Below, in pieces: positions 29,221-49,834 of a stretch of DNA of 49,834 nucleotides (positions are counted from its first letter, which is position 1; each line of letters begins with the position of its first letter). The translations under genes and the position numbers were made by a program. Below the pieces are notes generated by a model that was given only the letters and a program-made list of their open reading frames with translations, had not been told where the DNA came from and ran no database searches. The stretch comes from Escherichia phage UP30: sequence record OX638287, one strand, 5' to 3'.

Positions 29221-29246
29221 AAGGGGCCGATTGGCCCCTTTTTTTA
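29221..29246. terminator. bidirectional terminator between convergent J and cor operon
   Basis: ggggcc-gatt-ggcccc then T7. Confidence 0.7.
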
Positions 29247-30200
29247 ATACATGTTTGGAGTGAAAGGAATTGGCATTGAAATGTTTATGTTGAATGGGAA
29301 TTGAGCGCCGCTCTGAGTAGAATAGTTACCTACCCTCGTTCCTGGTGCGCTTCTAACGTTACCTCCGCTCATGCACACGCCCTTGTATCGGATGTTATTA
29401 TATCCACCTGTAACCCTGCATATTGTGCCAGTTCTCAGTATTGGGAAAAATCCACCGCACCACTGCCAGCCGTCATTTATCGCCATAGTCCCGCCGAGAA
29501 CGAAGGGGCGTCTAACGCTTGAGAAAACGATCTGACCAGCGGGATTGCTCATAGTAATTCCCGGTCCTGGAGGTGGTGGAGTGTTATTAAATATTACGAG
29601 TTGCACGTATACGCTCGCGCCAACGTCATCAATCCCGTTATAGTTTGCATCCCTACACCATATAGTATTTCCGTCAGATTCAAGTGTTACGTTTGGGTTA
29701 TCCCACATACCGAAAGGAACGCCCTGGACTGGCAATTGAGCCTGACCGTTAACCTGGATGCCTCCAACAAATGCGGCACTCATCAACCTTGCGTTATTCG
29801 GTATCGCTGCGAAGTTGGTTGAATCGTTGACAAGTATCCCCTGATTTCCTGCCTGAGCGGGGAGAATTTCGTAACAGTTGCCATAAAATCTCATCCTTCT
29901 TCCACCGTGACCGTTAAAATTCCCTACCGTTATTCGCCCGGTTGAATCATTAACCTTCTGAAAGCTGGTTAAATAATACACCTCAGGAATATAATCCATG
30001 TCGTCTATGTAGATGGACTGAGATGGAAGGCAAAAAGCAGTAGATCCAGGACTCATTTGCAGACCAAAATCAAAAACCGATCCCGATGAGTCAACGCCGT
30101 CCGCTTGTATTGGTCCGCACCATGACGGTGCGCGAAGCCCCGAGGTTATCTCCATTGCCGGACGACCGTCATTTAAGTTTATGTATATTCCTTGTCCCAT
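29244..30200 (-). CDS. hypothetical Gly/Asn-rich protein (about 318 aa), co-operonic with Cor-like lipoprotein
   Basis: ATG 30200 lies 2 nt after upstream stop (coupling); ends at bidirectional terminator. Confidence 0.55.
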   Translation of the reverse strand: MGQGIYINLNDGRPAMEITSGLRAPSWCGPIQADGVDSSGSVFDFGLQMSPGSTAFCLPSQSIYIDDMDYIPEVYYLTSFQKVNDSTGRITVGNFNGHGGRRMRFYGNCYEILPAQAGNQGILVNDSTNFAAIPNNARLMSAAFVGGIQVNGQAQLPVQGVPFGMWDNPNVTLESDGNTIWCRDANYNGIDDVGASVYVQLVIFNNTPPPPGPGITMSNPAGQIVFSSVRRPFVLGGTMAINDGWQWCGGFFPILRTGTICRVTGGYNNIRYKGVCMSGGNVRSAPGTRVGNYSTQSGAQFPFNINISMPIPFTPNMY

Positions 30201-30202
30201 AA

Positions 30203-30433
30203 TTACCACTCTTTAGTTTTGATTGACACCTTGCCGCTAAAGTTTCCCTGGTCGTCGTCTGATGACAGACCTTTGAATCGCATGTCGATTTCTCCAGCGG
30301 GAACATTCTGCCCGTCAACGAATCGCATCATGCAAGAACCGTACGCGTAAGTAACACAGTCGCCATTTTTAAGATTCTGAGCGCAACCAGTCAGGATGAA
30401 TGCAGAAGCGATAATGGTGATTAATTTTTTCAT
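30203..30433 (-). CDS. Cor-like lipoprotein (putative superinfection exclusion)
   Basis: 76 aa, signal peptide with lipobox LTGC, GAGGAC RBS, own sigma70-like promoter; name is from T1/phi80 context, not verified. Confidence 0.5.
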   Translation of the reverse strand: MKKLITIIASAFILTGCAQNLKNGDCVTYAYGSCMMRFVDGQNVPAGEIDMRFKGLSSDDDQGNFSGKVSIKTKEW

Positions 30434-30462
30434 TTGTATGTCCTCGTCGTTAGTGTGATTGC

Positions 30463-30491
30463 ATTGTATGTCGCATTTACTTTTATTGCAA
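30463..30491 (-). promoter_or_regulatory. sigma70-type promoter of cor operon (TTGCAA-17-TACAAT)
   Basis: -35 30486-30491, -10 30463-30468 on minus strand. Confidence 0.5.
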
Positions 30492-30511
30492 TAGCTCGAT
30501 TACAATTTTTT

Positions 30512-30695
30512 CGTGTAACAGGTGTCTATTTTTGTAACCGGAATAGGTGTTACAAAATCGACCCCATCCGACCGCAGGGAGATATGATAAAAACTCTATA
30601 TAATATATATAGATAGATAATATTTAATTTTAGCTTTATATATATAATTATTGTTGTGTAACAGTTGTCTATCGTGTAACAGGTGATTTGATTGA
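30512..30695. repeat. direct repeats cgtgtaacaggtg (x2) and gtgtaacagNtgtctat (x2) flanking an AT-rich block
   Basis: 13-mer at 30512-30524 and 30673-30685; TGTAAC/GTTACA 7 times in 30514-30854. Confidence 0.6.
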
Positions 30696-30900
30696 TTCGT
30701 CAAATTTCTATCATATATGTTCAAAATTTAATCAATAGGGATTCCATTTATGGATATCTATGTATTTCTAAGAAAAAGCGGTTACAAGTGTTACGCAATA
30801 GACAGCACACAAAAACTGACTCAAGTTATTGATTCAGTTGATGCTGGTTGTAACTTGAGCAATATAGACACGCAATTACACACCAATTACATGTATTCGA

Positions 30901-30928
30901 TTGACTAAATGCTGTTAATGGCTATAAT
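30901..30928 (+). promoter_or_regulatory. canonical sigma70 promoter of recombination module (TTGACT-16-TATAAT)
   Basis: -35 30901-30906, -10 30923-30928, AAGGAG 30945-30950. Confidence 0.6.
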
Positions 30929-30959
30929 GGATTCATCGTAAACGAAGGAGATAAACGCA

Positions 30960-32024
30960 ATGTTTAAAGTATTCACATCAAGCCAGCTTTCTAATGACGA
31001 GTATCATAGCAATGAAGGTTGGGCGGCAGAGTATGTAAGCGGATCTAGCCTTGCTGAAATCTATCAGACTTGTCCGGCTAACTGGAGATTCAAGAAGAAC
31101 GAAACGACTAAAGCGCTGGAGTTCGGTACTCAGTCGCATACAAACTTTGAGAGTAGCGATCTGTTTACTGCAACGTATGCGCGTTGTCCGTCTCCGGCAG
31201 AGTTCAAAGATCTGATTACGTCACAAGCCGCGCTGGCTGCAAAATTAAAATCTTTCGGCCTGAAAGGTACATCCGGTAAGCAGTACCCGGACCTCATCAA
31301 AATGATGGTTGATTGCGGTGAAGATCTCAATGTTCAATATCTGATTGAACTGATTGCTGAAGCTGAGGCGCGTGCTGAAGGAAAGCAACTGGTTGACGCT
31401 GATAAATATGATGCCTGTATGAAGATGAGAGCCATCCTTGAGCAAAATCCCGATCATGAAGCGTGCATCAATAGCGAGACGGCCCAGCGTGAGATCTCAA
31501 TCTTCGGTGAGATATCCGGCGTAAAGGTTAAAGTTCGACTTGACCATTTGGACTATAAAGAGAATGTTCCAGGTCGTGTGCTGACTGGTTACGATGAGAA
31601 TGGCGATCCGGTATTCGAAGACGTGATTTTTCCTGAAGCACTGATTATCACCGACTTCAAAACAACTATGAGCGCTAACCCGTTAGAGTTCCCGAGACTG
31701 GCATACAATCACGGCTATTACCTGAAAATGGCATTGCAGCACGACCTGCTGCGACGTGCAATCCAGGCTGGCGCTTTTGAGGGTAACTTCCCGGAAGATA
31801 TCCCGATCGTAGTTCGATTACTGGCGCAGGAGAAAAAAGAGCCTTACATCGCCCTTGCTTACCGCATGACTATGGAGCAAATCAGGATCGGGCGTAGTCA
31901 GTATGTTAGCGTTGTCCACACCTACAAGGCTTGTTCTGAGATGGACGTTTGGCCCGGATACGCTGGCGACGCAAGCGAGATCGAACTTGAAACGCCGTCA
32001 TGGGTACGCTATCAAAACAAGTAA
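30960..32024 (+). CDS. recombination exonuclease (PD-(D/E)xK, YqaJ/RecE-like)
   Basis: ITDFKT motif; first gene of exo-Erf-SSB module; canonical promoter upstream. Confidence 0.55.
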   Translation: MFKVFTSSQLSNDEYHSNEGWAAEYVSGSSLAEIYQTCPANWRFKKNETTKALEFGTQSHTNFESSDLFTATYARCPSPAEFKDLITSQAALAAKLKSFGLKGTSGKQYPDLIKMMVDCGEDLNVQYLIELIAEAEARAEGKQLVDADKYDACMKMRAILEQNPDHEACINSETAQREISIFGEISGVKVKVRLDHLDYKENVPGRVLTGYDENGDPVFEDVIFPEALIITDFKTTMSANPLEFPRLAYNHGYYLKMALQHDLLRRAIQAGAFEGNFPEDIPIVVRLLAQEKKEPYIALAYRMTMEQIRIGRSQYVSVVHTYKACSEMDVWPGYAGDASEIELETPSWVRYQNK

Positions 32025-35122: not shown

Positions 35123-36056
35123 AGAGTAGGTCACTTGCTGAGAATAATTTGGCTTGCATTCCTGAACGGTATCCTCCAGGGTTAGGGATGATTATTTTTA
35201 ACTGCCTGTCGTCTGCCATATACAAAGTTTCTTTGTCAGATGGTTCGCACGCCACCCTTACCTCCCGATCCCCTTTGTATCTGTACGCAACCATTTCTAG
35301 GTTTTCAGGAGTAAAGCAGGCCCATACCTCTTGCTTTGTATGAAATGCAATATGTTGAGCATCAATCCAGTTTAGACACAAGTAGATCGCCTTCTCAGTT
35401 TTACCAGTCACGGCAACCGAGCAACTTGTGTATTTCTTCGCGTAAAATGATTCCCTTCCCTCTTCATCAATAATCAAAATATTGCAAAACTCGTCATCAA
35501 GCCCATCGTCATGCACAAGTTGACACGGGATAGTGTGAAATACTGACTCACCGCCATCCTCGCGACGTTTTACGCCTACGTCGAATGATTCAGTGGGTAG
35601 TGACTCAAACATACTTAGAGGCGTGTTTACGCGCTTCTCTGTGCGCTCCATAACTTTCATCACTGCATCATGGTCTGCCATCATAACATTTACGCCAGCT
35701 ACCGGAGTGCGGCGTGCTTTTTTGTTTGCCTTGACAATGTACTCCTGCGGAACCTTACCGAGAAATCTCCCCAGGATGTTTATGCATTCACTGTACGGCA
35801 TACCAGTTAATTTCATCAACCAGCCGATCCCGGAGTCGTTGCCGCATGAGTTGCAGATCGCGCCGCCGTCGCCCGGAGTATTCAAGTTATCAGTCCAACG
35901 AAAACGGTCCTTGCCGCCGCAGTTAGGGCAAGGTTGGTGCTTCTTGTTGAAAACCTCGTTAGGCAATCCGCAAACAGACTGGAATGCATCACGCCATAAC
36001 CCCTTCATATACGGCAATACGTCCTCTTTCTGAAACATCATAAATTCTTCGTTCAC
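35121..36056 (-). CDS. DNA primase (zinc-binding, putative)
   Basis: CPNCGGKDRFRW...CNSC zinc-finger motif; GTG 36056 or ATG 36041, start uncertain. Confidence 0.55.
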   Translation of the reverse strand: MNEEFMMFQKEDVLPYMKGLWRDAFQSVCGLPNEVFNKKHQPCPNCGGKDRFRWTDNLNTPGDGGAICNSCGNDSGIGWLMKLTGMPYSECINILGRFLGKVPQEYIVKANKKARRTPVAGVNVMMADHDAVMKVMERTEKRVNTPLSMFESLPTESFDVGVKRREDGGESVFHTIPCQLVHDDGLDDEFCNILIIDEEGRESFYAKKYTSCSVAVTGKTEKAIYLCLNWIDAQHIAFHTKQEVWACFTPENLEMVAYRYKGDREVRVACEPSDKETLYMADDRQLKIIIPNPGGYRSGMQAKLFSASDLL

Positions 36057-36568: not shown

Positions 36569-36581
36569 CTTGATTCTCCTG

Positions 36582-36648
36582 TAGCACTTTTTGCTAAAAA
36601 CGTTTACTGTATGCCGTGTATTATAGCGTAAACGTTACAACGATTCAA
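36582..36648. promoter_or_regulatory. bidirectional promoter region sharing one palindromic -10 (TATTATAG)
   Basis: Box 36582-36601; plus -10 tattat 36619-36624; minus TATAAT 36620-36625 with -35 TTGAAT 36643-36648. Confidence 0.5.
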
Positions 36649-38680: not shown

Positions 38681-39093
38681 TTACAGACAAAGGTGATTAT
38701 TTAGAGTTTTACGAACGAGATCCCAGCGACACACGAAAGGAGGACGCGCACCAGGTAGATTGCGTGTCCTGGCTGAAATACAATTTCCCACATCTTCTAT
38801 TTTGGCACACTGTAAATGAAGGTGAAAAAACAATCACCTCGGCGCTCAGGGATGAGCAGGCTGGGTTACTTAAAGGAGTGTCAGACTTCGTTATCCTGAT
38901 TGGTGTAAACTCACGCTACCCGTTCGCAGCTATCGAACTCAAGCGGGTTAATAAGTCCGGCAAGGGAAAGGCGTCACCAGTCAGCGATAAGCAAAAGGAA
39001 TTTCTCCGCAATGTTCGTCAACGAGGTGGATTTGCTGCGGTTGCATATGGATTGGAGCAATTCAAGATCGCAATTTACGAAATGATGAAATAG
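38677..39093 (+). CDS. VRR-NUC-type nuclease
   Basis: PD-(D/E)xK-like core (VSDFVIL...AAIELK); ATGA overlap with helicase. Confidence 0.6.
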   Translation: MITDKGDYLEFYERDPSDTRKEDAHQVDCVSWLKYNFPHLLFWHTVNEGEKTITSALRDEQAGLLKGVSDFVILIGVNSRYPFAAIELKRVNKSGKGKASPVSDKQKEFLRNVRQRGGFAAVAYGLEQFKIAIYEMMK

Positions 39094-39135
39094 CACTTTT
39101 TGTTAAAACTGCCGGAATGGAATCTGGCATTATTA
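39091..39135 (+). promoter_or_regulatory. promoter module upstream of dam
   Basis: tagcactttttgttaaaac; TGgCATTAT. Confidence 0.5.
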
Positions 39136-44106: not shown

Positions 44107-45675
44107 TTAACCCATCAGTCGAGGATTGATGAAAACAATATCATCAATGCGGCAAGTGTAGTTCATCTCTTCGAGCGTGATCAGCAGACTGTCGATTCGC
44201 TCAGCTACCTTCTGCTGACCGTTGAACGGAGTAACGTTCCGACACTTCGCTACAATGCTATGAATCGGTGCGCGGCCTTTGTTCTTCTTCGCGATCTCAG
44301 TGATAACATCAATCAGTTTACGGGATTCAGCCTCATCACCAGCATATCCGGCAGCACTGGCAGAAGAAAGATAAGTCCTGGAAAGCTCATTGAAAATCAT
44401 AATCGCTTCCTGCATTGTTTCGAGATCAATCTCACGATTAGCTCGGTTCGGTGATTCACCCTCCCAATTCTTGATCGTGTGAAGAACTGAGGCGATACGC
44501 AGAGCGTGCTTATCGAACTTTCCGAGATGACCGCGCAGCATTGAGTGAGAGTATTTCCCCCCGGCGGCGAAATCCGGTTCCATAGCCTGACGCGCCAGGT
44601 TTAATTCACGCATAGCATTACGGCTTACAGAGAGAACAACGTTTTCCTCCTTCATGATGTTATGCACGAGTCGATAATATTTGCTAACCAGTCCGCGATC
44701 GACTTCCTTATACAGTGCATCACCATTTTCATCGCACAGAATACGAGTACCTAAAAGCGGTTCCTCACGAACTAACAAGAAGCGCTCAGATACACCGATA
44801 CCTCGTTGGCCTGCGTCCATGATACCCTTGATTGTTTCATCCTGAGCAATTACGCAGATCGAACCTACCGGGCACAGGGACAAGTTATTGTCCTGGTTGG
44901 ATCGAGCGACCTCCATGTGGTTTTTATCCCACGCCTTAAGGATAAGTTCACTGTTGGATTTCTTATCTGAACCTCCATACGTCAGTCCAAGCAATGTATT
45001 GATTGCCGTTGCTTCATCAGAGATTACGGAGAAGTGACCTTGAACAGCCGCCACTTTCGCCAGACCTTCGGGTGTAGGATCTGATACCGCGAAAACAATA
45101 TCAGCCATCTTCTTGATCTTCTCTTCCAGTTTCTCTTTGTCTTCGTACAGAGCCGCAGTCGTGTTACCCTTCTGGTCGTTCTTGATTTCCTTCTCAACCT
45201 GACGTAGCTGACTGGTTAAACGGATACGCTCCTTTTTGCGTTCTTCATTCAGTCGCTGAATCTCCGCGCGCATAGGAGTAATTGCCGCTGAGTTAATCGC
45301 TGATTTACCCGTTGACGGCGGCTGACTGATTACCATATAAAGCGCGGTCGGTTGTTCTTCGCCGTGATATTGCACCCAAAACTTCCCGAGCATCGCGGCT
45401 GAGATGCAACCGATGAAATGAGCGTACGCAGACGAAACCGGGAACTGAACTGACTCAGCCTTCGCCTTTGCATATTCGAATACCAGGTTATCGCCACCTA
45501 ACGAAATCAGCGGGAACTTATCGTTGCCGCTATTGATATCGATCGGGTCTTGCCAAAACGAAACTGAATCCCCATAACTGTTTTCACGAATTGCGATCGC
45601 CACCGGATTAACTCCAGTGCTATTGGCGATCTCAATAATCTGTTGGTAATTAAGTTTTGGCTTAATATTAAACAT
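44107..45675 (-). CDS. P-loop NTPase, probable replication-associated ATPase/helicase
   Basis: Walker A PPSTGKS, Walker B-like CVIAQDE; ATG 45675 after AAGGAG (track ORF starts 45738). Confidence 0.55.
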   Translation of the reverse strand: MFNIKPKLNYQQIIEIANSTGVNPVAIAIRENSYGDSVSFWQDPIDINSGNDKFPLISLGGDNLVFEYAKAKAESVQFPVSSAYAHFIGCISAAMLGKFWVQYHGEEQPTALYMVISQPPSTGKSAINSAAITPMRAEIQRLNEERKKERIRLTSQLRQVEKEIKNDQKGNTTAALYEDKEKLEEKIKKMADIVFAVSDPTPEGLAKVAAVQGHFSVISDEATAINTLLGLTYGGSDKKSNSELILKAWDKNHMEVARSNQDNNLSLCPVGSICVIAQDETIKGIMDAGQRGIGVSERFLLVREEPLLGTRILCDENGDALYKEVDRGLVSKYYRLVHNIMKEENVVLSVSRNAMRELNLARQAMEPDFAAGGKYSHSMLRGHLGKFDKHALRIASVLHTIKNWEGESPNRANREIDLETMQEAIMIFNELSRTYLSSASAAGYAGDEAESRKLIDVITEIAKKNKGRAPIHSIVAKCRNVTPFNGQQKVAERIDSLLITLEEMNYTCRIDDIVFINPRLMG

Positions 45676-45751: not shown

Positions 45752-46168
45752 TTATAAGTATTTGGCCTCAAAGGTTGTGCCGTCCGCGATGCTGAATCCA
45801 ACCTCTTCGCGAAACAGCGTCCAGCGATATCCATCCTCATCAAAGATGTAGCCAGCCACTCCACCAAGCGCACGACCGCTTTCCACCTGGTAGCGCTTTC
45901 CAACCTTGAATGATTTTTTCATGGGGTTGCGATGTTCAAGCCCGGTGCACTTTAGCGTCTTGGTTTTAAGTTCAGTGAACTTCGCGAAGTAGATTTCATC
46001 AGATCCGTGAATCTGTAATTCATCGTGTTTCTCAAGTTTTAAATACTTTCCGCATTTTAATTTAATTTCGCGAGTTCCGTCGTAACGCTCACGACCTTTA
46101 TACAGATTGTTTACTTCGAAGCCTGTGATTTTTTCTGCGGAAGTGCATTTCAGTTTGATGGATTTCAT
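45752..46168 (-). CDS. hypothetical protein (138 aa)
   Basis: ATG 46168 after CCAATCAGGAG leader and promoter module. Confidence 0.5.
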   Translation of the reverse strand: MKSIKLKCTSAEKITGFEVNNLYKGRERYDGTREIKLKCGKYLKLEKHDELQIHGSDEIYFAKFTELKTKTLKCTGLEHRNPMKKSFKVGKRYQVESGRALGGVAGYIFDEDGYRWTLFREEVGFSIADGTTFEAKYL

Positions 46169-47831: not shown

Positions 47832-47880
47832 GGGATGACTATACCAGCCATCCCGGATGCGCGTTTAGCAATTCGTGCTA
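47832..47880 (-). promoter_or_regulatory. promoter module (minus strand)
   Basis: Minus-sense tagcacgaattgctaaac; gggatggcTGGTATAGTcatccc. Confidence 0.55.
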
Positions 47881-48216
47881 TTAAGCAATATCGAACTCAG
47901 CGGCATATGCTTCCTTGAAGCCAGCTTCACGCATGGTGCGCTTGCTGATTTTGCGCTGGAATTTGTACTGGCTGTTAGGCATAACCCACCAGAAGCAGGC
48001 AGTTTCACGAACGATTTCATATTTACCGTAACGGGTGAAGGTGTCGCGTTCCATATCCGGCTGATTTACACAGGTCAGGAATTTAGCTGCCTTGTCTTCA
48101 GTTTTGATTTCTTCCCACACGAAGGAATCCATACCGTTAACCTTGCAAGCTACCATGATGTACTCAACGCCGTTTTCGATTTTGATGATTTCGTTACCGC
48201 GATTTTCGTATTTCAT
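47881..48216 (-). CDS. hypothetical protein (111 aa)
   Basis: ORF after promoter module; stop overlaps next box. Confidence 0.55.
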   Translation of the reverse strand: MKYENRGNEIIKIENGVEYIMVACKVNGMDSFVWEEIKTEDKAAKFLTCVNQPDMERDTFTRYGKYEIVRETACFWWVMPNSQYKFQRKISKRTMREAGFKEAYAAEFDIA

Positions 48217-48249
48217 TTTCCTGTTCCTGATGTGTATCTCGTTTCGATG

Positions 48250-48298
48250 AGGTAATTATGCCAAATCACACCGATCGAGTTTTAACAAAAAGTGCTAT
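48250..48298 (-). promoter_or_regulatory. promoter module (minus strand)
   Basis: Minus-sense tagcactttttgttaaaac; ggtgtgatttgGCATAATtacctc. Confidence 0.5.
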
Positions 48299-48986
48299 TT
48301 GCGATCGCTTTGAAAAATCCCCTGGGTGATAGCGATCGTATCAGCTTGGTCTTTGCAGACTTGCCGCCCAGCTTGTTCTGCTGCGCAGAGTACCCGTCAG
48401 GCAGATTTACTGGTTTTCTCTCCGGCATGACAAAGTCATCCGAGGTCCACAGGCACGTCTTCTTCGGGTAAGCATCGCGCGGCGCAATATACATCGGGAA
48501 CCAGGGGTGTACGTCATTCTCCGGTAGATAGCCGCCATACTCCCAGGGGTCGAAAGTGTGGTCAGCTTTACGCCAGGCAGATGAAAGAACGCTCACCGGA
48601 TTCTCAATGATGTAAGTCACGCCCAGGCTATCGCCAATGTTCGCAGCAATCCGGGCGGTGGCAACAGCTTTCTCCTGGAATAGCGGATCACGTTCACGCT
48701 TGCTGGCAAAATGACGAGCGCCGCTAACAGCCAGGTCAGTGCACGGCGGGAATGCCATAATGAAATCCGGCTTGCCATACACACCCGCGATCGCATCTCG
48801 CTCGAACTTCTCACCAATGAAGACGTTCACATACTCAATATTCGGATGCTCCACCCGGGCATTGTGCTTTGCATAATCTCCGTGATCGGCTCCGTCAAAG
48901 TTGAAGCACATCACCTTATAGCCTTGCTTTGCCAGTTCATGACCAGCCAGGCCGGAACCGTCGAATAGTGACCAGATTAATTTCAT
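48282..48986 (-). CDS. DNA (cytosine-5)-methyltransferase-like protein
   Basis: LFDGSG (motif I-like), PPCTDLAVSG (Pro-Cys motif IV-like), IIENPV (ENV-like); ATG 48986. Confidence 0.5.
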   Translation of the reverse strand: MKLIWSLFDGSGLAGHELAKQGYKVMCFNFDGADHGDYAKHNARVEHPNIEYVNVFIGEKFERDAIAGVYGKPDFIMAFPPCTDLAVSGARHFASKRERDPLFQEKAVATARIAANIGDSLGVTYIIENPVSVLSSAWRKADHTFDPWEYGGYLPENDVHPWFPMYIAPRDAYPKKTCLWTSDDFVMPERKPVNLPDGYSAQQNKLGGKSAKTKLIRSLSPRGFFKAIANSTFC

Positions 48987-49022
48987 TTGTTGCATTCTCC
49001 TGATTAACCTTATCGCTTACCC

Positions 49023-49148
49023 TTATCGCTTACCCTGACCGTTGCAAGCCGGACACGTGATTCGCTGCATTGTCCAGACTCCAGTGAATAAAGGAACCAG
49101 GGTAAATCCACGACCAGCGCACTGACTACAAACCTGTTTAACTTTCAT
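49023..49148 (-). CDS. putative small zinc-ribbon protein (41 aa; CSQC...CPAC)
   Basis: ATG 49148 after CCAATCAGAAGAGGAAG leader, in-frame within ORF 49023-49217. Confidence 0.4.
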   Translation of the reverse strand: MKVKQVCSQCAGRGFTLVPLFTGVWTMQRITCPACNGQGKR

Positions 49149-49164
49149 TGCTGCTTCCTCTTCT

Positions 49165-49227
49165 GATTGGTTGATGTGATGAATCATACCCTGCCAACCT
49201 GGTCCAGTCGTTAGCAAAAAATGCTAT
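49165..49227 (-). promoter_or_regulatory. promoter module (minus strand)
   Basis: Minus-sense atagcattttttgctaac; TATGAT; CCAATCAGAAGAGG leader. Confidence 0.45.
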
Positions 49228-49413
49228 TCCAATAATTGCTTATTATTCCATCAATGCTGGAATAGGTGGAATAATTTTGATTCCGATTGATTGCAAATGA
49301 TGAAACATGATTATTGCATGGTGTGCAACAGTTGGTTGATTTATTGCTGAGATTACAATGATTGTGAGAGGGAGGATCTAGTGTTACCCGGTTCGCCTGG
49401 TAGTCATCTCCAT
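49228..49413 (-). ncRNA. candidate non-coding transcript between two minus-oriented dyad boxes
   Basis: No ORF >21 aa on either strand; bracketed by boxes; ATTCC/GGAAT repeat cluster. Confidence 0.2.
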
Positions 49414-49434: not shown

Positions 49435-49521
49435 ATTACACTTTAACTTGTCACTGCTGTAATATTTGTCTAGAATCACACTTGTGACAAAATTACGCAC
49501 TGTGACACCTCACAATATACA

Positions 49522-49552
49522 TATAGATATATGTATCTATATAATATATATA
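49522..49552. repeat. AT-rich palindrome TATAGATA-N4-TATCTATA and 18-mer tctatataatatatatag shared with 30596-30613
   Basis: Exact 18-mer at 49535-49552 and 30596-30613. Confidence 0.55.
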
Positions 49553-49834
49553 GTATTTTTTTTATTTATATATATAGATAATTATATTGTAATAATTGTG
49601 TATAGTTGTCTTACATTGTCTAGCGTACTGTTGGCATATTTCTATCTGCATGTTTATATATACAGTACTTTTTTGAGAGCTATATATTTCTATATGGACT
49701 CTAGACAGCTAGACAAATGTTACACGGCTTAAAATCGGCTTGCAGGCATTGACAACTCTACGTCGCGCTGTCACAATGGCAATTGTTGACACGTTATGAC
49801 GCCATTTACACGCAAATAGACAAAGAGGATATAT

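Follow-up and report, generated by a model that had tools for sequence, protein, structure and literature searches.

The 526-bp gap between the leftward cor gene (30203-30433, minus strand) and the rightward exonuclease VIII gene, recE (30960-32024, plus strand), of Escherichia phage UP30 (record OX638287, 49,834 bp, referred to here as the window) contains a repeat-bearing element, designated R1 (30434-30959), that has a paralogous partner, R2, near the right end of the window. On the basis of its sequence, we assign a probability of about 0.5 to the interpretation that R1 is a replication origin module, composed of iterons and a DNA unwinding element, that is fused on its right to the promoter and operators of recE. 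The evidence leans toward an origin for the distal 300 bp (~30499-30804) and toward an operator for the proximal 150 bp (~30810-30959), which comprise the recE promoter and its candidate operators. The window is a T1-like Tunavirus genome with ~90% identity to T1; it is collinear with T1 (85-92% identity), and the first 300 bp of the T1 record are matched by the last 500 bp of the window. Because of this collinearity and the match between the end of the window and the start of the T1 record, we take the window to be a complete, circularly permuted genome. Downstream of recE are erf and then an SSB-like gene, and the separation of a leftward cor from a rightward exo-erf-ssb module by 526 bp, described in a previous reading of the window made from its sequence only (the sequence-only reading), was confirmed. 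The phage has a helicase and a primase, and its annotation shows no initiator or origin; the equivalent cor-recE gap of the T1 record carries no annotation. Papers on TLS and SU57 found neither an origin nor iterons in T1-like phages, a 2024 paper describes TLS as being without iterons, and other papers on relatives offer only origin guesses from GC skew, which disagree among themselves. No prior description of the R1 element was found in the literature on Drexlerviridae iterons or in several T1-like genome papers. The element, unannotated until now, belongs to a known kind.

The repeats of R1, TGTAAC and TGTCTA, are two versions of one TGT-initial unit of 9-10 bp that is organized in arrays of three. 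TGTAAC or its complement, GTTACA, is present at 30514, 30533, 30549 (minus), 30657, 30675, 30781 (minus), and 30849; these seven copies, of 26 in the window, all lie within 340 bp (30514-30854), where 0.21 copies per 526 bp would be expected from the rest of the genome (Poisson probability 3e-9). TGTCTAT or ATAGACA is present at 30523, 30666, 30798 (minus), and 30864 (minus), four of the six copies in the window, and R1 is the top cluster of the genome for TGTAAC and TGTCTA words. The 13-mer CGTGTAACAGGTG occurs at 30511 and again at 30672, and the inverted pair TGTAAC-N10-GTTACA (30533-30554) lies inside 9-nt arms, TTTTGTAAC and GTTACAAAA. The sequence-only reading had listed seven copies of TGTAAC, where fewer than one was expected by chance, together with four of TGTCTAT/ATAGACA, the repeated exact 13-mer, and the inverted pair. 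All of these were found, the TGTAAC copies at the positions given, but the unit consists of TGT and a tail of 6-7 nt and not of TGTAAC itself, which had been treated as the repeat. TGT is 2.4-fold enriched in R1, and spacings of 9-11 bp occur at ~2 times the expected number. Direct and inverted arrays lie on both sides of an AT-rich core. On the left is a single array that ends in an inverted word; on the right, array A is followed after ~100 bp by the inverted array B, which has the plus-strand reading GTTACAagt GTTACGca ATAGACA and forms with 30666-30681 a 16-nt inverted repeat that is 88% complementary.

The core is a candidate DNA unwinding element. Its GC content is 10% at 30591-30650, which bears out the AT-rich core that had been placed at 30590-30650, and this stretch is the second least stable 60-mer of the 49.8 kb, as judged by nearest-neighbour energy. 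The least stable is the core of R2 (49527-49586), and these two least stable duplex stretches of the genome are both >5 standard deviations from the mean. The cores have the 18-mer TCTATATAATATATATAG in common (30595-30612 and 49536-49553); this sharing had been recognized previously, with the second copy placed one base off, at 49535-49552. The decamer CTATATAATA occurs in the genome only at 30596 and 49537. R2 lies ~19 kb from R1 in a gap that has the leftward right-end genes on one side and, on the other, the first early gene read rightward. It aligns with R1, and its enriched words are TAGACA (five copies) and CTAGACA (four copies). In the window and in the genomes of IME347 and SRT8, the word set of the lineage picks out exactly R1 and R2 as the top clusters, and the duplication is present in all four genomes examined, those of the window, IME347, SRT8, and TLS, which represent different genera. 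The clearest paralogues are the two modules of TLS, each of which has a TGTTC-type triplet, ACAAAAAGAACAAA, CTATATAATA, TATATATA, a further triplet, and the inverted words GTGAACA..GGAACA. CTATATAATA is invariant across R1 and R2 of both the window and TLS.

Comparison with 15 distinct sequences from close relatives indicates that the words and the core are under selection. Variable columns number 9 of 70 in the words and 4 of 68 in the core, as compared with 96 of 328 in the other intergenic positions (p = 0.004 for the words and 1e-5 for the core). The most variable parts of the region are the spacers at 30539-30548, which separates invariant words of the left array, and 30556-30582. The layout was also compared in 46 viral Drexlerviridae contigs that encode a RecE relative (42-98% identity), from which loci of up to 21 kb were fetched. 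In 46 of 46 loci, recE is preceded by arrays, a core (at about -350), usually an IHF-like site, and usually a TTGACW promoter: the lowest-GC 60-mer of every fetched locus lies at -389 to -162 from the recE start, a loose IHF-like match (WATCAW-N4-TTR) lies at -133 to -144 in 38, and a TTGACW promoter lies ≤90 nt from the start in 40. The sequence-only reading had proposed an origin-like or operator-array-like architecture and had made this depend in part on conservation of the repeats in related genomes; the architecture is real and under selection, as indicated by the close relatives, the 46 loci, the instability of the core, and the activity and regulation demonstrated in T1 for the rightward promoter, with words and core conserved while the spacers drift.

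In IME347 (Badaguanvirus) and SRT8 (Sertoctavirus), in each of which RecE is 79% identical to that of the window, the arrays align with those of R1 position by position; the left array has positional homologues in both, with changed word tails. The TGT of every unit is invariant in the window, IME347, and SRT8, and the tails of the successive units of right array A in the three genomes are AAC/AAC/AAT, CTA/ATA/AAG, and AAC/CAC/AAT. The dominant words are TGTAAC and TGTCTA in the T1 group, TGTAAC in IME347, TGTAAT in SRT8 (10 copies, with TGTAAC absent), and TGTAAC together with TGTATA in ESCO41; TLS and the majority of the other subfamilies have TGTTCx/TGTTTx. Such coordinated word replacement at many sites, in which the TGT register is kept, is the signature of a co-evolving, sequence-specific protein reader, and a host factor is disfavoured in this role because phages that share one host have lineage-specific words. 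In TLS, R1 is preceded by the tail gene J, which lies on the same strand, and the full module is present in the absence of a leftward gene, suggesting that the module is more than an operator of divergent promoters. The divergent arrangement that had been described for R1 is not an essential feature.

Table 1. Components of R1 and its paralogue R2, in window coordinates
Feature	Position	Strand	Details
Predicted sigma70-type promoter of cor (leftward)	30463-30491	-	TTGCAA 30491-30486, 17-nt spacer, TACAAT 30468-30463; 9/12 positions in promoter scan
Additional inverted TGTAAT beside left array	30499-30504		
Left array	30514-30554	+	Direct TGTAACagg (30514), TGTCTATttt (30523), TGTAACcgg (30533), then inverted GTTACA 30549-30554
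Variable spacer with weak hairpin	30556-30582		Terminator-like hairpin on minus strand
AT-rich core, candidate DNA unwinding element	30583-30650	+	68 bp; contains the box CTATATAATA (30596-30605) and a TATATATA run
Right array A	30657-30683	+	Direct TGTAACagt / TGTCTATcg / TGTAACagg, 9-bp spacing
AT-rich block	30684-30750		24% GC; conserved, with few columns that vary among the 15 relatives; ranks with the genome's least stable 60- and 100-mers
Right array B, inverted	30781-30804	-	Minus-strand reading TGTCTATtg / CGTAACact / TGTAAC, 9-bp spacing
Predicted IHF-consensus site AATCAATAACTTG	30822-30834	-	One of five exact WATCAANNNNTTR matches in the window
Promoter-proximal words, candidate recE operators	30849-30891		TGTAAC (30849), ATAGACA (30864-30870), ATTACA (30875-30880, 30886-30891)
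Sigma70 promoter of recE-erf-ssb operon (rightward)	30901-30928	+	TTGACT-16-TATAAT; 11/12 positions in promoter scan
R2, paralogous second module	49440-49834	+	Core 49527-49586, CTATATAATA at 49537, flanking TGTGACA, TGTCTA/TAGACA, and GTTACA words

In the mechanism suggested by this anatomy, a phage-encoded, lineage-specific DNA-binding protein would coat the arrays and melt the AT core, perhaps helped by an IHF-induced bend at the predicted site and by the negative supercoiling that the divergent promoters of cor and recE would generate. The melted core would admit the replicative helicase, a DUF3987 protein (44110-45675), and the P4-alpha-like primase (35124-36041), and replication that starts there would be elongated by the host polymerase. 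R2 could be another origin, or it could act in cis as a partner in the manner of crr of phage P4. The primase has a zinc ribbon and matches residues 26-253 of P4 alpha (blastp, 1e-12). DUF3987 proteins are replicative helicases that carry a winged helix at the C terminus, according to a published description (PMC4889955), and one member is a proven 5'-3' helicase (PMC11724360). In the protein encoded by the window, residues 438-521 match a separate PHROG, and an AlphaFold model of the C-terminal domain, based on a two-sequence alignment, has a helix-strand-helix-helix-strand-strand order that fits a winged helix at low confidence (predicted local distance difference test score 55).

Several observations weigh against an origin at R1. 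No initiator was found among the candidates compared (Pir, the C-terminal domain of the helicase, and the proteins flagged by the three-way test described below). The winged-helix-like C-terminal domain of the helicase does not covary cleanly with word class, because ESCO41 groups with TLS, and comparisons of this domain with the origin-binding domain of P4 alpha and with solved structures detected no similarity; a protein search with this domain yielded no useful homologue set. The window contains no DnaA box (TTWTNCACA) and the R1 region no GATC, and the near-perfect conservation of the core, with its invariant decamer that includes TATAAT, exceeds the needs of meltability, which could point to a promoter or to a site for a different protein. 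An enhancer-like transcription complex would account equally well for the fixed distances that core, IHF-like site, and promoter keep throughout the family, and there are words immediately upstream of the two -35 boxes and within a fragment responsive to the phage regulator Pir. GC skew follows gene orientation and transcription and is uninformative as an indicator of an origin. To our knowledge, DnaA boxes are not obligatory for phage origins.

The main rival interpretation, which we regard as appreciable although somewhat doubtful, is that R1 functions purely in transcriptional control. In that case a phage regulator (Pir, Orf65, or another early protein) would use the arrays as operators or enhancer-like sites and, with an IHF bend, would act as a switch for the early promoters of recE-erf-ssb and cor and, at R2, for the two terminal early operons. 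The role of the AT core would be that of a promoter or of a structural or UP-like element. The two interpretations are not exclusive because iteron systems commonly double as operators. Both of the sigma70-type promoters that had been noticed at R1 were recovered by a promoter scan; words abut the -35 boxes of the two, the cor promoter has just two variable columns among the 15 relatives, and recE has a ribosome-binding site, AAGGAG, at 30945-30950 and an ATG at 30960. R1 and R2 each precede a rightward early operon with promoter-like sites, and the invariant CTATATAATA includes a perfect -10 hexamer, TATAAT, which is accompanied in R2 by a passable -35 element. With GFP reporters, Laganenka et al. 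(2019) found that the recE promoter of T1, the equivalent of the rightward promoter, is active and is repressed by Pir (orf23) and by cAMP-CRP, and that Pir, in addition to repressing its own promoter, activates hol and dam (PMC6737242). The T1 reporter fragments reached ≤150 bp upstream of the start codon (PMC6737242), and the equivalent of the recE fragment in the window, 30810-30974, includes the last four words, for which an operator role is plausible, and the IHF-like site. The arrays and the core are outside this fragment, so the reported effects of Pir and CRP were seen in their absence. CRP-consensus matches are present in the window at the chance level (201 as compared with 199 expected); the only two matches in the region with three mismatches are the inverted word pair. 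Other findings that argue against transcriptional control as the sole function are the clustering of the words at R1 and R2 and not at other promoters, the retention of the left array and the core by TLS, in which no leftward gene is present, and the location of a 400-bp upstream apparatus on the least stable DNA of the genome, which would be unusual for a sigma70 promoter.

Pir is probably not the reader of the arrays. Its Cro-like helix-turn-helix region is identical in IME347 and SRT8, which have different words (TGTAAC and TGTAAT, respectively), and, in the 40 loci compared, shows no correspondence with word class. The whole of Pir is nearly identical in these two phages; the changes counted in a three-way comparison are one unique to SRT8 and five unique to IME347. 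Its autoregulated promoter was considered as a second site, but the pir-helicase gap has none of the R1 lineage words, and in the TGTT-class phages the pir promoter is likewise without lineage words; in the T1-type pir promoter region, one GTTACA lies within a near-palindrome, an observation that favours a regulatory role for the words. In every lineage this gap contains one copy of a 19-nt family, ATAGCACnnnTTGnTAAAA, then a conserved -10-like box, TGTATTATA, and then a lineage-specific palindrome. The palindrome of the window (36600-36640, around and after the -10-like box) is a perfect 9-bp inverted repeat, AACGTTTAC...GTAAACGTT, with its arms 20 bp apart, and that of TLS, at the same place, is ATGCC-N6-GGCAT. 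These palindromes are candidates for lineage-specific operators of Pir.

Leads to the protein that reads the words came from a three-way asymmetry test for proteins that are alike in the window and IME347 and different in SRT8, a crude test whose hits count as leads only. The hits were Orf65, the N terminus of Dam, the first early gene, and a 138-aa protein (45752-46168, minus strand) whose gene lies immediately upstream of that for the helicase. The 138-aa protein has 28 changes unique to SRT8 and one unique to IME347; its C-terminal half is conserved, and its N-terminal half is near-identical in the window and IME347 and replaced in SRT8, in which the repeat word has changed from TGTAAC to TGTAAT. 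It is only a lead because ESCO41 does not fit. When ESCO41 was examined as a mosaic, none of its proteins was decisively on the side of T1; the primase is just slightly closer to that of T1. The 138-aa protein and the winged-helix-like tail of the DUF3987 helicase are at present the leads for an initiator.

R1 is unlikely to be a cis site of another type in which phased hexamers are combined with an IHF bend, such as a pac-like site, a partition site or centromere for the carrier state of T1, or a hotspot for RecE/Erf recombination. Such combinations exist: in the pac and parS sites of P1, an IHF site is accompanied by repeats of hexamers or heptamers. R1 and recE-erf are linked in every case, and R2 is ~220 bp from the position that matches the left end of the T1 record. 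T1 can persist extrachromosomally, plasmid-like carriage having been reported (PMC6737242). However, R1 is ~19 kb from the mapped end (T1 coordinate 1, window 49313), a location that does not correspond to that of a pac site, and a separate GATTG/TGATT-rich tract (window 49308-49365) adjoins that end to the left of R2. Similarity searches with the R1 region against plasmids and E. coli genomes gave no match, and no ParA/ParB-type genes were present among the proteins scanned. We know of no requirement of RecE/Erf-type recombination for specific sites. The GATTG/TGATT-rich tract is also present in TLS (record positions 1-60) and IME347 (49930-50000); T1 coordinate 1 is the start of the 2.8-kb terminal repeat of T1, and the tract, which is separate from the module of TGT words, is a candidate for the region recognised as pac. 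Finally, it is highly improbable that the repeats have no function and are a chance or compositional by-product of AT-rich intergenic DNA, in which a short hexamer can recur (TGTAAC is not over-represented genome-wide, at 26 copies as compared with 20.6 expected), in view of their local enrichment, the conservation of words between variable spacers, the presence of the layout with coordinated word replacement in all 46 loci, and the two paralogous copies in each of the four genomes.

Other features of the region were also characterized. An Rfam scan of 30100-31100 gave no match. The weak hairpin of the variable spacer is not kept in other genera. An ATG-initiated open reading frame of 52 codons within the gap (30750-30908, plus strand) is probably not a gene because it has no counterpart in IME347 or SRT8. 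Beside cor, the window differs from T1 in having a gene for a 321-aa membrane protein (29244-30209, minus strand; PHROG 1265, "moron/host takeover") that replaces T1 orf31/32, an arrangement also present in phi2457T, DELF2, and ESCO41. A second difference from T1 is the presence of ~1.3 kb of additional small genes at the right end (47845-49170).

If R1 is an origin module, a wider proposal can be made tentatively and with some doubt: that all Drexlerviridae replicate from a bipartite, P4-like pair of paralogous TGT-iteron modules, one upstream of recE and one beside the packaging end, that are read by an unrecognised, fast-evolving phage initiator. The same modules could support the plasmid-like carrier state of T1. 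T1 belongs to the classic set of seven T phages and is notorious for contaminating laboratories and fermentations, and R1 and R2 provide two precise, family-wide origin candidates with which the question of the origin in this family becomes directly testable. The words TGTAAC, TGTAAT, TGTATA, and TGTTCx form a natural specificity series, and swaps among them could reveal the initiator. With a defined origin, replicons based on T1 and controls for marker-frequency analysis would become possible; such an origin would also give a handle on the reported extrachromosomal carriage and would link the replication logic of a virulent siphovirus family to that of the P4 satellite. If R1 and R2 are only regulatory, they still represent a conserved, duplicated early-control module that is worth mapping.

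The module can be compared with four types of known elements. The 21-nt intergenic direct repeats of TLS and T1, aaATAGCACnnnTTGnTAAAA, are also a repeated non-coding element of T1-like phages and have been reported as unexplained (PMC11447400), but they are a different family that is conserved across subfamilies, unlike the lineage-specific TGT words. The T1-type counterpart of the TLS repeats is the ATAGCACnnnTTGnTAAAA family, which accounts for 27 copies across the window (≤3 mismatches, as compared with 1.9 expected), none of them in 30434-30959; they are mostly co-oriented with the downstream genes and include the sites at 786-804, 2579-2597, 36581-36599, 39090-39108, and 48280-48298 (minus). 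Because the conserved TGTATTATA follows ~20 bp after it in the pir-helicase gap of every lineage, ATAGCACnnnTTGnTAAAA resembles an activator site or a component of a promoter class specific to the phage. Operator arrays such as lambda OR/OL and the stoperators of mycobacteriophage L5 resemble R1 in having multiple short sites near promoters, and the proximal words are in the Pir-responsive fragment. The sites in R1 and R2 are, however, mostly direct repeats in helical phase and not palindromes, they are gathered at two loci around an unwinding-prone core and not at many promoters, and Pir neither covaries with the words nor has lineage words at its own promoter.

In iteron origins (lambda ori, pSC101, R6K, and P1 oriR), repeats that are initiator sites lie beside an AT-rich unwinding element, often with an IHF site, and inverted copies at a nearby promoter couple the binding of the replication protein to transcription. 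R1 is similar in that short repeats in helical register are clustered there, are rare elsewhere, and are adjacent to an AT-rich region of low stability. The units of R1 are shorter (9-10 bp as compared with 17-22 bp) and are mainly defined by TGT; R1 also differs in having no DnaA boxes and no recognisable rep gene beside it, whereas the lambda origin lies within its initiator gene.

The resemblance to the ori/crr system of P4 is one of design; R1 and R2 do not belong to that system, as judged by the octamer and the alpha protein. Where P4 has the octamer TGTTCACC, the window has the 6-mers TGTAAC and TGTCTA, and (G)TGAACA is carried only by relatives of the TLS class. P4 alpha combines primase, helicase, and a C-terminal origin-binding domain, whereas in the T1-type phages the helicase is a separate protein of another family (DUF3987) and only the primase domain is homologous; neither tblastn nor hhalign found a homologue of the P4 alpha origin-binding domain. 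The T1-type modules are also full paralogues, each with an AT core, ~19 kb apart. In other respects the correspondence is close. In the annotated P4 record, type-1 iterons, to which the alpha primase-helicase binds, are present in direct and inverted arrays of 2-3 at 9-11 bp beside AT-rich DNA, and they occupy two loci, ori and crr, 4.9 kb apart, just as R1 and R2 both carry repeats. The P4 ori, like R1 in the window, sits between divergent operons in a control region, and the primase of the T1-type phages is homologous to the primase domain of alpha. The TLS word GTGAACA is the core of the P4 iteron, and every variant in the family starts with the same TGT.

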